64,000 bases of DNA from Escherichia coli (GTDB lineage: Bacteria; Pseudomonadota; Gammaproteobacteria; Enterobacterales; Enterobacteriaceae), in NCBI RefSeq assembly GCF_036507355.1, contig NZ_AP027877.1. One strand, written 5' to 3'. Position numbers and translations under genes: made by a program. The notes beneath the pieces were generated by a model. That model made no database searches, had not been told where the DNA came from, and saw nothing but the letters and a program-made list of their open reading frames with translations. Positions 9,212 to 20,281 of this stretch are shown piece by piece; positions within the stretch are counted from its first letter, which is position 1, and each line of letters opens with the position of its first letter.

Positions 9212-9349
9212 TTAATGAACTTAATGATACAGCATTACAAAAACAATCGAAGTTTAAAAAATAAAATTTTTATAAAGATGATCTCTGATTGACCAGAACC
9301 CTACCATACAATGGTGACTAATTTTATTACTCTCGAAGGAGATGATGAT

Positions 9350-9853
9350 ATGAATATATCATATGTGAATAGCAACAAAACGACATCTTTACCTGTTGAG
9401 CTAGATGCACTAAATAATAAAGATATCTCTTATGCCAAAGATTTTTCTTATGCCAAAGATTTCTTTTTATATATAGAAATACAGTTAAAAATTGCAAAAG
9501 ATTTTTGTAGACCTGGAGAAGAAGTATCAAGTTCTATTGCAAGTACAGTTTTTCACGCTTTTATTGATTTAGTTAACAAAATCAGGGGAAAGAAAGATTG
9601 TATGTATATTTGTACGCTTTGCTGTTTTGCCGAGGAGGTTAAAGGTGATTATTCTCATTACAGGACCTTTTCATTTGATATCGGTAATCAATATAAGGTT
9701 AAACTTACACAAAGCGGAAAAGATGAGTTCTCTTTAACTTTAGAATTTAACGATACTATAATTGAATCTCAGAAAGTCACAGGCAATAAGGCAAAGCATA
9801 TTCTTAAGGATATAGCAGAATACTATCGTAACAAACCCGGCACTTATTATTAA
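9350..9853 (+). CDS. hypothetical protein, AT-rich, between aphA and tyrB
   Basis: Track ORF 9311-9853; in-frame ATG at 9350 preceded by a strong SD (GAAGGAG); long open frame in ~30% GC DNA; internal 18-bp tandem duplication encoding SYAKDF-SYAKDF; no recognisable domain. Confidence 0.45.
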   Translation: MNISYVNSNKTTSLPVELDALNNKDISYAKDFSYAKDFFLYIEIQLKIAKDFCRPGEEVSSSIASTVFHAFIDLVNKIRGKKDCMYICTLCCFAEEVKGDYSHYRTFSFDIGNQYKVKLTQSGKDEFSLTLEFNDTIIESQKVTGNKAKHILKDIAEYYRNKPGTYY

Positions 9854-16985: not shown

Positions 16986-17003
16986 ATTACAAGAATCATG
17001 CCA
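16986..17003 (-). promoter_or_regulatory. candidate sigma54 (-24/-12) promoter of pspG
   Basis: Minus-strand TGGCATGATTCTTGTAAT, close to the TGGCAC-N5-TTGCA consensus, ~35 bp upstream of the pspG start. Confidence 0.5.
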
Positions 17004-17085
17004 AAAATAATCTATTGATTTAACAGCAAAACGCCCCGCGACGGTGCGCAGGGCGTGGTGAATTTGACTATTTTTTGGTGAAAAG

Positions 17086-18078
17086 TTAACGCTTATCCGC
17101 CACCAGTTTGAGCGCGTGTTCCAGCACATTAATGTCTGCACCCGCTTTATGGGCATTTTCACTTAAATAACGCCGCCACTGCCGCGCGCCAGGAATACCC
17201 TGGAACAAGCCCAACATATGCCGGGTAATATGGCCAAGATACGTCCCCTGGCTGAGTTCACGCTCAATGTACGGATACATGGCGCGCACTACCGCCACCG
17301 GATCGGCATCGGTATCCGAGGAACCAAAGATCTCCCGGTCTACCGCCGCCAGAATACCCGGATTCTGATACGCCTCGCGCCCGACCATCACGCCATCCAT
17401 ATGTTGCAAATGCGCTTTAGCTTCTTCCAGCGACTTGATGCCACCGTTAATGGACATTGTCAGATGCGGAAAGTCACGCTTCAGTTGATACACACGCGGA
17501 TAATCGAGCGGCGGGATTTCACGGTTTTCTTTCGGGCTTAACCCCGAAAGCCAGGCTTTACGTGCATGGATGATGAACATCTCACACTCGCCTTTGCCGG
17601 AAACGGTGTTGATGAAATCGCAGAGAAATTCATAGCTGTCCTGGTCATCGATGCCAATACGCGTTTTCACCGTCACCGGAATCGACACCACATCGCGCAT
17701 CGCTTTCACGCAGTCGGCAACCAGCTGCGCATTACCCATCAGACACGCACCAAACATGCCGTTCTGCACCCGGTCAGACGGGCAGCCGACATTCAGGTTG
17801 ATCTCATCATATCCACGCGCTTCTGCCAGCTTCGCACACTGCGCCAGCGCCGCCGGATCGCTACCGCCGAGTTGCAACGCTACCGGATGTTCTTCTTCAC
17901 TGTACGCCAGATAATCACCTTTACCGTGAATAATCGCCCCTGTGGTCACCATTTCGGTATACAGCAACGTATTGCGGGAAAGCAGACGCAAGAAATAGCG
18001 GCAATGTCTGTCCGTCCAGTCGAGCATTGGTGCAACGCTAAACCGACCACTCCAGTGAACGTCAGTTTTTTCAGGCAT
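17086..18078 (-). CDS. dusA: tRNA-dihydrouridine synthase A
   Basis: TIM-barrel Dus-family sequence; ATG at 18078 gives 330 aa, track ORF extends to 18129. Confidence 0.9.
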
Positions 18079-18485
18079 TGCGCTGGTTTGGTTGATTTTT
18101 TGCATTTCAGAATTACCGTGCATTTTCAAATGTAAAGATTATTTTATCGATATATCATTGAGTTATGTTATTCAGCATCACTGTTCAGGAGGCTCAATAG
18201 CGGGATACTATACCATAACAACAGGAAGCGCCTGTCTCATTGCAAAAGAAAATTGAGATCCTCTCAAGGCATGAAGCTCTCACGAAGTGATGGAAATAAT
18301 CTTATTAGCCGTTAGCTTTGTTAAGGCCAATGATAAACAATCCAGGTTCGACGATAAATAAAAATCACACATTAAACTCCGGTGATATCTCTCCCTGCTA
18401 ATAGCACTGATAGAGAAAAAAAGAACCCAATAAGCATTGGGTTCTTTTATGTAATGCCTTCTATACCATCGAAGAACTTCACATA

Positions 18486-19232
18486 TTATTTCTCCGATTT
18501 AACCCCGAATAAATCATAAATTAATTTAGAAGTGTCTGTAAGTATTTTAATCTTTTCCTTTGAGTTTGGGTCAAACGACTTAGCAAAGTCAATTAATTTC
18601 GGTGCAGCATCTCGCATTTTGCTTAAAATATCAGGTTCGAGCTTTCCTTCATTCACCAGAAGTGACATTTTATCCAGATAGTCATCAAATTTCATTCCCC
18701 CCCGGTCCGCCAGATGCTTCATCTCTCCCAGGTACTTCTTCATATCACGTTGAGATAATTCTTCAAACTGAGCTGTCAGATAGTTCTCATTATATTCATT
18801 AATCTTCACTCTTTCTGCTCCTGCTAAATCTACGTAGGCACTAGAATATGAAAGTGAAATTAACAGCGAAGCGAATAATTTTAAGCTGTTGTCATCATAT
18901 TCCTGACATGCATTAACAAACATTAAAAAACCAGAACCTATTGCTTGTAAATGTATATTTGCTAAAGGTTCATTATCTTTAGATTCTTCATAAAATAACT
19001 GAACCGTGGAGGGAAGGCCATTCTTGGTTTCTACATCAAAAGTATATCGTTCTATGGGCGTTGCATCTTTATTACCCTCAGTATTACATATACTATTAAC
19101 CGCGAAATGAAAAATAGCCCGATCAACAACTGATGCAATAAATTCACGATCGTTTAAGTCCTCATCAGTGCAATCTCCAATATACTCATTGACCCACACT
19201 TTGAGATTATTTATTTGCTCAATTAAAAACAC
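18486..19232 (-). CDS. yjbM: hypothetical protein in AT-rich block (YjbM position)
   Basis: 248-aa track ORF, low GC, no recognised domain; position matches K-12 yjbM between dusA and zur. Confidence 0.55.
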
Positions 19233-19447
19233 ATTTTTTTACGTGCATGCCATAAATTATGAGTGATTCTTTGAATAAACAAATCTATTTTTACAATAAT
19301 TATATCCCGATGACGCAGCGCTGAATAATCAATAGACTTACCATATATATTATCTAATTTATCTTTGATTGCATCTTTATTATCGAATTGATTTGAATTG
19401 AGTGTTTTATTAAAGTATCCTGTTGCACCGGGTATTATCTTCAACAT
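19223..19447 (-). CDS. yjbL: small hypothetical protein (YjbL position)
   Basis: 74-aa track ORF overlapping the yjbM start by 10 bp, AT-rich. Confidence 0.45.
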
Positions 19448-19765
19448 GATTCATCTACCTTTTTTGTCGTACCGTGTCCTCCTTATAAGTGTTTTGCCAT
19501 CTGGTAACTATCAAAAATCGCTCATAATTTTCTGAACTACAGGTATGCGAACAACCCCTGTTAAATAAATAGCGAGTTAACTTGAAGCAATTTATTTAAA
19601 AATGAATTATTAATTATTATCGTGTTGATAATGGTACGACCAGGCAACACAACACCTTACGTACAAAACAGAAAATCAACATTACGGCAACAATAAGGGT
19701 TCTCGGTGTTTTTCCTGGAACATGGTAAAGTAAGGACATTCTTAACCCCCACTTTGAGGTGCCCG

Positions 19766-20281
19766 ATGGAAAAGACCACAACGCAGGAGTTATTAGCGCA
19801 GGCTGAAAAAATCTGCGCGCAGCGTAATGTGCGCCTGACCCCACAGCGCCTGGAAGTGTTGCGCCTGATGAGTCTGCAGGATGGCGCTATCAGCGCTTAT
19901 GATCTGCTTGATTTGCTGCGCGAAGCTGAACCGCAAGCCAAGCCGCCAACGGTTTATCGCGCGCTGGATTTTCTGCTTGAGCAAGGTTTTGTGCATAAGG
20001 TGGAATCCACCAACAGTTATGTGCTCTGCCATCTGTTCGACCAGCCCACCCATACGTCAGCTATGTTTATTTGCGATCGCTGCGGCGCGGTGAAAGAAGA
20101 ATGTGCTGAAGGCGTGGAAGACATCATGCATACGCTGGCGGCAAAAATGGGGTTTGCCCTGCGGCATAATGTGATTGAAGCACATGGGCTCTGTGCGGCA
20201 TGCGTGGAAGTGGAAGCGTGTCGTCATCCTGAACAGTGCCAGCATGATCACTCTGTGCAGGTGAAAAAGAAACCGCGTTAA
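19766..20281 (+). CDS. zur: zinc uptake regulator Zur (Fur family)
   Basis: Internal ATG gives 171 aa (MEKTTTQELLAQAEKICAQRNVRLTPQRLEVL...); C-terminal Cys/His metal-site residues. Confidence 0.95.
   Translation: MEKTTTQELLAQAEKICAQRNVRLTPQRLEVLRLMSLQDGAISAYDLLDLLREAEPQAKPPTVYRALDFLLEQGFVHKVESTNSYVLCHLFDQPTHTSAMFICDRCGAVKEECAEGVEDIMHTLAAKMGFALRHNVIEAHGLCAACVEVEACRHPEQCQHDHSVQVKKKPR

Follow-up and report, generated by a model that had tools for sequence, protein, structure and literature searches.

The yjbL and yjbM reading frames of Escherichia coli are two parts of one DUF2713 gene, frameshifted within a probable remnant of a dusA-specific element

Between the core genes dusA and zur of Escherichia coli lies an AT-rich block with two overlapping minus-strand open reading frames (ORFs) of 248 and 74 aa, which correspond to yjbM and yjbL of K-12. 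We examined this block in a stretch of 64,000 nucleotides (NCBI RefSeq assembly GCF_036507355.1, contig NZ_AP027877.1), all of which is referred to here as the window. Reading-frame and alignment comparisons showed that yjbL and yjbM are one gene of ~320 aa belonging to the uncharacterised family DUF2713, split by a deletion that shortened a tract of eight A residues (A8) to seven (A7). From the boundaries and distribution of the block among related genomes, we conclude that positions 18036–19697 are most likely what is left of a dusA-specific integrative element that has decayed and lost its mobility, and we infer that DUF2713 was formerly its cargo. Taken together, a single frameshifted gene inside a dusA-element remnant is in our judgement the probable explanation of this locus.

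One gene split at an A tract

The 248-aa ORF, which has a GTG start, matches the Pfam model PF10897 (DUF2713) from end to end (model positions 1–235 of 235) with 453.6 bits and E = 1.9e-136, where the gathering threshold is 27 bits. The 74-aa ORF, which has an ATG start, gave no Pfam or NCBIfam match and no credible PADLOC match. An earlier note, made from the sequence of this stretch alone, had seen no recognisable domains in either ORF; this stands for the shorter of the two and fails for the longer. The Pfam model spans the yjbM part only, and the true family has about 85 more residues on the N-terminal side.

On the coding strand the junction between the ORFs reads CGT AAA AAA ATG TGT TTT TAA. 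The yjbM frame is −1 relative to yjbL, and the 248-aa ORF begins at a GTG within this junction. Restoring one A, from A7 to A8, yields an ORF of 320 aa with a junction identical to that of intact E. coli proteins of 318–340 aa, and in a multiple alignment the conceptual fusion aligns over its full length with these proteins at 85–94% identity. The junction falls within the family's best-conserved motif, AK[IL]DxFxQxITxxLWxASxKxV, which is unbroken in homologues that are 20–27% identical. In O157:H7 the 318-aa gene is intact, with a G+A7 junction that is in frame (TAREKNV). In K-12 EPI300, and again in strain SWYHX138, the complete genome most similar to the window, the Prokaryotic Genome Annotation Pipeline (PGAP) treats the homologous sequence as a single DUF2713 pseudogene, which it marks "frameshifted". 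The N-terminal part also varies in length through a 30-nt repeat, with one copy in the window, two in K-12 and three in SWYHX138; among 44 metagenome loci the upstream part measures 207, 237 or 267 nt, and these lengths vary within clades.

The K-12 annotation and some papers present yjbL and yjbM as a genuine, translationally coupled operon whose two small proteins act together, and the earlier note had likewise proposed a coupled pair. The layout lends itself to this interpretation because the ORFs overlap by 10 nt with the GTG of yjbM just 5' of the yjbL stop. The overlap is between the 3' end of yjbL and the 5' end of yjbM, and not at the start of the upstream gene, as had been stated. The split form is also the majority (2235/3247 genomes, see below) with both halves open, it evolves with a ratio of nonsynonymous to synonymous polymorphism (pN/pS) of ~0.4 as intact alleles do, and "yjbLM" is given as an operon in PMC3946193 and PMC12218254. 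However, single intact ORFs with the same junction are found in 932 genomes and also in O157-type, type II and type III alleles, distant homologues run through the junction as single ORFs, and the split severs the motif that the family conserves best. The yjbM start has no Shine-Dalgarno (SD) sequence and PGAP marks the gene as frameshifted. We therefore consider two cooperating proteins very unlikely; the two ORFs represent the N-terminal and C-terminal portions of a single gene that a 1-nt homopolymer deletion has divided.

Loss of one A from the A8 tract, in the window as in K-12, would shift translation by −1 past codon 71 and bring in a stop three codons on, producing what is annotated as yjbL and leaving the remaining 248 codons open as yjbM. 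The A7 allele would then represent an "off" or strongly attenuated form of the gene. No SD sequence precedes the yjbM start in the A7 allele, no SD-like element was detected 5' of the A run, and the 84 nt downstream fold no better than shuffled sequences (z = −0.71). This suggests that an A7 allele would yield full-length product only through slippage at background level on the A run, during transcription or translation, and YjbM by itself would arise only through weak re-initiation at the overlapping GTG. Read in phase, the heptamer is T_AAA_AAA, on which the A-site tRNA re-pairs fully and the P-site tRNA at two of three positions only. The two-frame layout is not kept in homologues, which are single ORFs, so that neither the stimulatory element nor the conservation by which a programmed −1 frameshift would be recognised was found. 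The DUF2713 split is a homopolymer frameshift polymorphism, a case of ordinary genome decay.

Tract lengths and allele classes in the population

We surveyed 5426 complete E. coli genomes. DUF2713 DNA of any kind is present at the locus in ~4284 of them, and ~4017 carry a window-like "type I" block at ≥80% coverage. Divergent "type II/III" alleles in the same synteny (proteins P0173 and P0176, 44–45% aa identity) account for ~364 genomes. The site is empty in ~1140 genomes (~21%), where dusA and zur lie 155 nt apart. The block of the window itself reaches at most 97.7% identity to any genome in the set and an IS1 lies nearby, so that the stretch may come from a Shigella or from an Escherichia lineage not yet sampled.

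Tract length was scored with a 42/43-nt junction probe that matched 3247 complete genomes. Of these, 2235 have exactly A7 (including K-12, BL21 derivatives and O104:H4), 932 have exactly A8 (including E. coli W), and at most 80 have anything else. An independent sample of 44 metagenome contigs, screened with a pattern that admitted A5 to A10, gave 33 with A7, 11 with A8 and none of other lengths. In a tree built from the 747 nt downstream, A7 and A8 alleles are interleaved. Among haplotypes defined by variable sites within ±200 nt, at least three groups carry the A7 state (K-12-like, L102-like and window-like), and each of them is nearer to some A8 haplotype than to the remaining A7 groups; one haplotype with identical flanks for 100 nt on each side bears both A7 and A8. 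Repeated slippage would be the simplest reading of this recurrence, with short-tract recombination as the alternative. Three E. coli proteins (P0080–P0082) carry an in-frame A5 variant that encodes HARKNV, one lysine fewer, and so the A run also varies by 3 nt.

Several of these population data fit poorly with a plainly inactivated A7 allele. A7 alleles show no extra decay and both ORFs are open in most of them: the downstream ORF is usually 246 or 248 aa, the upstream part is stop-free, and exceptions are mostly low-coverage contigs. Tract lengths besides A7 and A8 are rare. Values of pN/pS are alike at ~0.4 for A7-A7, A7-A8 and A8-A8 comparisons (A7 0.40 vs A8 0.36), which points to weak constraint on the DUF2713 protein, although this equality is uninformative on the timing of the frameshift because most of the divergence may predate it. 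The term "off allele" may consequently be too strong, and the split form could keep some function. Homopolymer errors in long reads could also inflate the A7 counts, but the metagenome assemblies and the K-12 sequence, which dates from the Sanger era, show the same pattern.

The tract might alternatively be a functional switch, either phase-variable between ON (A8) and OFF (A7) or subject to programmed −1 slippage that keeps full-length protein at a low level. Phase-variable contingency loci built on simple-sequence tracts are found in Haemophilus, Neisseria and Campylobacter. As in such loci, a poly-A run within the coding sequence (CDS) of DUF2713 sets the frame, its ON and OFF lengths are both common and recur interleaved on several haplotypes while other lengths are nearly absent, an in-frame variant exists, and a second hypervariable feature, the 30-nt repeat, lies within the same gene. 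Lysine codons in A runs are shift-prone, and −1 programmed frameshift sites are established in dnaX and in IS911/IS3 elements (A_AAA_AAG). The DUF2713 site resembles these in having an A-rich lysine-codon run that permits tRNA-Lys re-pairing and a downstream ORF in the −1 frame, where a slip would restore the full-length protein.

It differs from the dnaX and IS911 type in that its heptamer is out of phase, with imperfect re-pairing in the P site, in lacking a stimulatory SD element or downstream structure, and in that the frameshift is a derived allele and not conserved within the family. Compared with classical contingency loci, a tract of seven or eight is short, recombination may mimic recurrent mutation, and loss of function through drift or selection fits equally well. 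Neutral slippage at a mutational hot spot combined with selection for loss accounts for the data without any "design". To our knowledge, E. coli is not known for homopolymer phase variation. We regard a functional switch as unlikely, though we leave it a modest chance, and hold to a frameshift polymorphism as the better description of the tract.

Type I and type II alleles pose a separate question. The non-coding DNA of the block is 95–100% identical between them, including the spacer on the dusA side, and identity collapses precisely over the CDS, falling from ~82% at its 5' end to 35–60% at its 3' end. Synonymous divergence (dS) climbs along the gene, from 0.35 to about 1.7, a profile for which in-place mutation within one species is insufficient. 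This implies either that the CDS was replaced like a cassette, from an unknown donor, or that the polymorphism is old and balanced.

The block and the 5' end of dusA

Over 18130–19765 the guanine-cytosine (GC) content is 0.350, compared with 0.504 for the window (z = −3.5). This is the segment of minimum GC for its size in the 64 kb; values as low occur in only 0.18% of segments of that size, every one of which overlaps it. GC is 0.37 in the spacer, 0.35 in yjbM, 0.28 in yjbL and 0.34 in the region upstream of them. The gene order is qorA, pspG, dusA, the block, zur, yjbJ, dinF and lexA, and the flanking positions of dusA (minus strand) and zur (19766–20281, plus strand) match annotated E. coli records. 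The earlier note had taken the two low-GC ORFs, which are present as it described, for a foreign insert between core genes. This proposal has held up well: ~21% of complete E. coli genomes, as well as E. albertii, do not have the block, and it is joined to an element-type dusA 5' end.

Islands and prophages that insert into the conserved 5' region of dusA through DAI tyrosine integrases have been described, and in them the functional dusA 5' end is island-derived with the integrase adjoining (Farrugia et al. 2015, PMC4482086). In the window, alignment with an empty-site genome loses homology inside dusA, and the two alleles code different DusA N-termini. Among dusA loci from 80 Enterobacteriaceae species, 68 have a short N-terminus (M-x-x-E-S-Q-T-x-x-P-A-H/Y-RFSIAPMLDW); E. 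albertii and the representative genome of E. coli, both with empty sites, are among these. The window has lost this native form (M-P/S-x-E-S-Q-T-x-x-P-A-H/Y-RFSI) in favour of an extended N-terminus (MHGNSEM...HWSGRFSV) that occurs in 12 of the 80 species. A gene of the integrase family (Phage_integrase, PF00589) starts at a fixed 166–168 nt upstream of the RFSV codon in 6/12 extended loci and in 0/68 short ones. The closest parallel is Escherichia sp. MOD1-EC7003, whose integrase-adjacent dusA 5' end is 91.6% identical to the window at the DNA level, with homology that stops at 18126, at the dusA start. All DUF2713-bearing loci examined are of the extended type (6/6) and all empty ones of the native type (3/3). 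The dusA CDS of the window is thus a chimera of an element-derived 5' end and a native body.

The other boundary is equally sharp. Blastn matches to the zur-proximal DNA of more than 35 genera start abruptly at 19698, which places the right junction of the insert at 19697/19698. Between these limits the block shares with dusA islands an insertion in the 5' region of dusA with an element-derived, expressed 5' end, and cargo that is atypical and strain-variable (GC 0.35 vs 0.50; ~1140/5426 E. coli without the block).

Four negative results count against this assignment. An integrase adjoining the dusA 5' end was not detected, as neither tblastn with an integrase query against 18000–19800 nor blastn against locus L013 gave a significant match. 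Attachment (att) sites of dusA islands are defined as two semi-conserved direct repeats of ~21 bp (PMC4482086), and only one RFS[IV]AP-coding copy was found in 17000–20000. The window holds no displaced native dusA 5' fragment, and the far junction runs straight into zur-upstream DNA. Finally, no extant dusA island with DUF2713 cargo was found among representatives of 100,044 species or in IMG/VR contigs. The link between DUF2713 and a dusA element is therefore based on contiguity and co-segregation rather than on an intact island with the gene. With no integrase, the window carries a remnant and not an intact member of the group, and one of ~1.6 kb that, lacking att repeats and a displaced fragment as well, cannot excise.

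These gaps invite the view that the block is unrelated to any dusA element, having arrived as a separate insertion or arisen locally as a new gene, with the odd dusA 5' end gained separately. No integrase or att remnant lies inside the block, homology to integrase-bearing elements stops at the dusA start codon, and the zur-dusA slot varies by genus, with cupin and TraF-like genes elsewhere and nothing in E. albertii. Against such independence, the element-type 5' end and the block were always present or absent together at the loci examined, and compared with the empty allele they constitute one indel. Distant DUF2713 paralogues sit on contigs that are plasmid-like or rich in insertion sequences (IS), which argues against local gene birth. 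We consider a separate origin distinctly unlikely and favour a common one, in a single dusA element.

According to such a history, a dusA element would have inserted at the conserved 5' site of dusA through tyrosine-integrase recombination, supplying a replacement 5' end that would persist in the window and still serve dusA. Deletions would since have removed the integrase, the second att copy, the native dusA 5' fragment that had been displaced and most of the cargo, and the ~1.6 kb left over would be fused straight to the native zur promoter. What remains of the cargo would be a single DUF2713 ORF, preceded by an AT-rich region and followed by an intrinsic terminator, both of its own.

The same insertion site is in use today. 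In O157:H7, and in 47/47 prophage contigs from IMG/VR that contain DUF2713, a prophage begins directly after ...RFSVAPMLD of the dusA 5' fragment, and in genomes with a dusA prophage the match to our query starts only at window position 18020. Judging from these junctions, the att site of the remnant is still functional and is re-used by present-day prophages, a further likeness to dusA islands.

The presence of the gene in these 47 viral contigs, and its matches to the unnamed families phrog_29005 and phrog_28007, could suggest that DUF2713 is a moron, that is, an add-on cargo gene, of current dusA prophages. However, in 47/47 contigs the gene lies at the very end of the contig, beyond the att junction, in host DNA past the displaced dusA 5' fragment. 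No match was found in 50,697 phage genomes, and thousands of genomes carry the gene without a dusA prophage. The moron proposal is already contradicted by these data and retains next to no probability; in view of the contig-edge position and the null result in phage genomes, we reject phage-gene identity. Insertion of dusA prophages beside DUF2713, with the gene left outside the junction, explains its inclusion in PHROGs even though no phage genome has it.

Element-type dusA 5' ends without an adjacent integrase were also seen in loci L017, L019, L020, L038 (Kosakonia), L039 (Leclercia) and L079, and these are probable remnants like that of E. coli. In Kosakonia the upstream ATG of the extended 5' end has decayed (KSKHGNSEM...). 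In most genera the slot between zur and dusA holds a cupin gene (162 aa), a gene for a TraF_2-like outer-membrane protein (~436 aa), or both, and zur-to-dusA spacing ranges from 192 to 3400 nt. Neither gene occurs in the Escherichia loci examined (E. coli and E. albertii).

Features of the block are listed in Table 1. The spacer beyond the dusA start presumably contains the current dusA promoter. A search against Rfam gave no family at the gathering score.

Table 1 Coordinates of dusA, the DUF2713 gene and associated features in the window.
Feature	Coordinates	Strand	Remarks
dusA CDS	17086–18123	−	345-aa form, ATG at 18123; homologous PGAP records give 1038 nt
att crossover zone of dusA-targeting elements	18021–18035		codons for ...APMLD/W
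dusA element-type 5' end	18036–18123	−	homology to empty-site allele ceases at ~18035
AT-rich spacer, dusA start to DUF2713 terminator	18124–18418		no integrase remnant
Intrinsic-terminator-like hairpin, 13-bp stem then T run	18419–18448	−	37 nt past DUF2713 stop; consensus scan and direct reading
Whole DUF2713 gene, frameshifted allele	18486–19447	−	an A8 tract would give 320 aa
yjbM ORF, C-terminal 248 codons of DUF2713	18486–19232	−	PF10897 E = 2e-136; phrog_29005 E = 1e-141
yjbL ORF, N-terminal 71 DUF2713 codons, 3 out-of-frame codons and stop	19223–19447	−	ORF list and alignment
A7 homopolymer, frameshift site	19234–19240	−	read from sequence; A8 restores intact frame
30-nt repeat, single copy	19346–19375	−	codes 10 aa, DA[IT]KDKLDN[IR]; in predicted disordered N-terminus
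AT-rich DUF2713 upstream region (promoter and 5' untranslated region)	19448–19697		terminates at right-hand junction of insert
Native zur promoter region, outside insert	19698–19765	+	conserved across genera; GC 0.485

The block had also been described as probably silenced by the nucleoid protein H-NS. In K-12, the zur/yjbL region is one of a published set of AT-rich "promoter islands", with a predicted foreign origin and with H-NS bound in all three chromatin immunoprecipitation data sets compiled (PMC3661553), and it includes a site for the RpoD holoenzyme, mapped by genomic systematic evolution of ligands by exponential enrichment (gSELEX) and assigned to "yjbLM" (PMC3946193). These published data concern H-NS binding at the K-12 homologue, not silencing. 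The promoter-island work treats a property of non-coding DNA, and the gene structure and origin of the block were not its subject (PMC3661553).

Distribution, predicted protein and significance of DUF2713

No relatives of DUF2713 were detected among representatives of 100,044 species, and an exhaustive HMMER search of 1.8 billion cluster representatives returned 52 proteins only, mainly fragments of the E. coli gene. By this sampling the gene appears to be essentially restricted to E. coli. Distant paralogues (P0153, P0154, P0158 and P0165; 20–27% identity in alignment) lie on short IS-rich or plasmid-like contigs. P0153 adjoins a pentapeptide protein with a SopD-like N-terminal motif (WDRFxDxF), with a KfrA gene also present, and one E. 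coli paralogue adjoins an IS, hok and an AIDA-like gene. P0154 was not found in complete E. coli genomes, nor P0153 in plasmids. On one IS-rich contig the N-terminal domain of ~115 aa that characterises the long paralogues (P0158 residues 1–115) recurs as a truncated ORF (L007, 1077–1592), which suggests that DUF2713 N-terminal domains may be shuffled modularly.

A plasmid origin for the gene was tried and rejected, as the matches proved to be chromosome records or a chromosomal fragment captured by IS26. Capture of yjbJ-zur-yjbL-yjbM by an IS26-blaSHV-12 unit has been reported (PMC7319535). We observed this fragment between IS26 copies on Klebsiella plasmids, for example K. oxytoca NZ_CP069917.1 (H104), which explains the "Klebsiella" DUF2713 entries in protein databases.

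An AlphaFold2 model built from a 14-sequence alignment reached a predicted local distance difference test score (pLDDT) of 74 and a predicted template modelling score (pTM) of 0.72. Residues 1–43, which include the repeat, have pLDDT below 50 and are predicted to be disordered. The predicted body is mainly helical with one three-stranded sheet, and the frameshift site falls in a low-confidence loop (residues 67–73). Foldseek searches of PDB and BFVD gave no match at E ≤ 0.001, and a sequence-profile search of PDB gave none. Pfam, NCBIfam, PADLOC and PHROGs profiles, run with both ORFs and the family alignment, returned DUF2713, unnamed PHROGs and otherwise noise; the best PADLOC defence models did not exceed noise (E ≥ 0.003, 13–16 bits). 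Residues ~241–282 resemble the SHOCT-like repeats of a TrbI/DotG-like protein, and seven polar residues (K53, D55, D100, R110, S200, S203 and D207) are invariant across distant homologues. A literature search on DUF2713, and on yjbM with H-NS, found nothing. The function that the earlier note left unassigned accordingly stays so, with profile searches leading to an uncharacterised family only.

In some respects the locus resembles low-GC islets with orphan effectors, such as the SopA-like/pentapeptide yjbI gene 8 kb away. These are small AT-rich islets among core genes that are often pseudogenised, and DUF2713 shares with them a disordered N-terminus and, in P0153, a paralogue beside a pentapeptide protein. 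It differs in that no sequence or fold similarity to any known effector was found. In the window the yjbI-type gene (27486–29842, minus strand), related to type III effectors, forms an islet with GC of 0.39–0.42 and is split by an IS1 at ~28274–28777 that carries an InsB ORF (Pfam DDE_Tnp_IS1). Another islet with GC of ~0.38 lies between the aphA-like and tyrB-like genes and encodes a 180-aa ORF (9311–9853, plus strand) with no Pfam match. The K-12 tyrB/yjbS region is likewise a promoter island (PMC3661553).

DUF2713 is an orphan of mobile origin that evolves fast, has divergent allele classes and is often lost or inactivated, features that would suit a part in a conflict between host and parasite or between bacterium and host. 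Our guess is that it is a conflict or interaction protein, effector-like or phage-related, and costly enough to be lost repeatedly. A bolder version would make it a conflict protein with a new fold, in which the A7/A8 tract acts as an ON/OFF or low/high switch and hyper-diversity arises through cassette-like exchange within conserved flanks; we hold this to be a long shot. The hyper-divergent coding cassette and the restriction of the tract to A7 and A8 are the loose ends behind a "contingency gene" reading, to which we assign a low probability. If it were true, what K-12 carries as yjbL/yjbM would be an E. coli contingency gene in its OFF phase.

For annotation, the consequences are more immediate. 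In K-12, yjbL and yjbM are halves of one gene, and the annotated 345-aa DusA owes its first ~28 codons to the element, not to the native gene. Care is needed with counts that treat yjbL-yjbM as a young two-gene operon (PMC12218254), and with PHROG and IMG/VR entries that treat DUF2713 as viral. The A7/A8, type I/II/III and empty alleles form a natural allelic series with which the function of DUF2713 may be approached. The locus illustrates how a site-specific island may decay to a single gene and leave a working att site for new prophages. We see it as an example of known processes, namely decay of a site-specific island and homopolymer frameshift polymorphism, which does not overturn current understanding.

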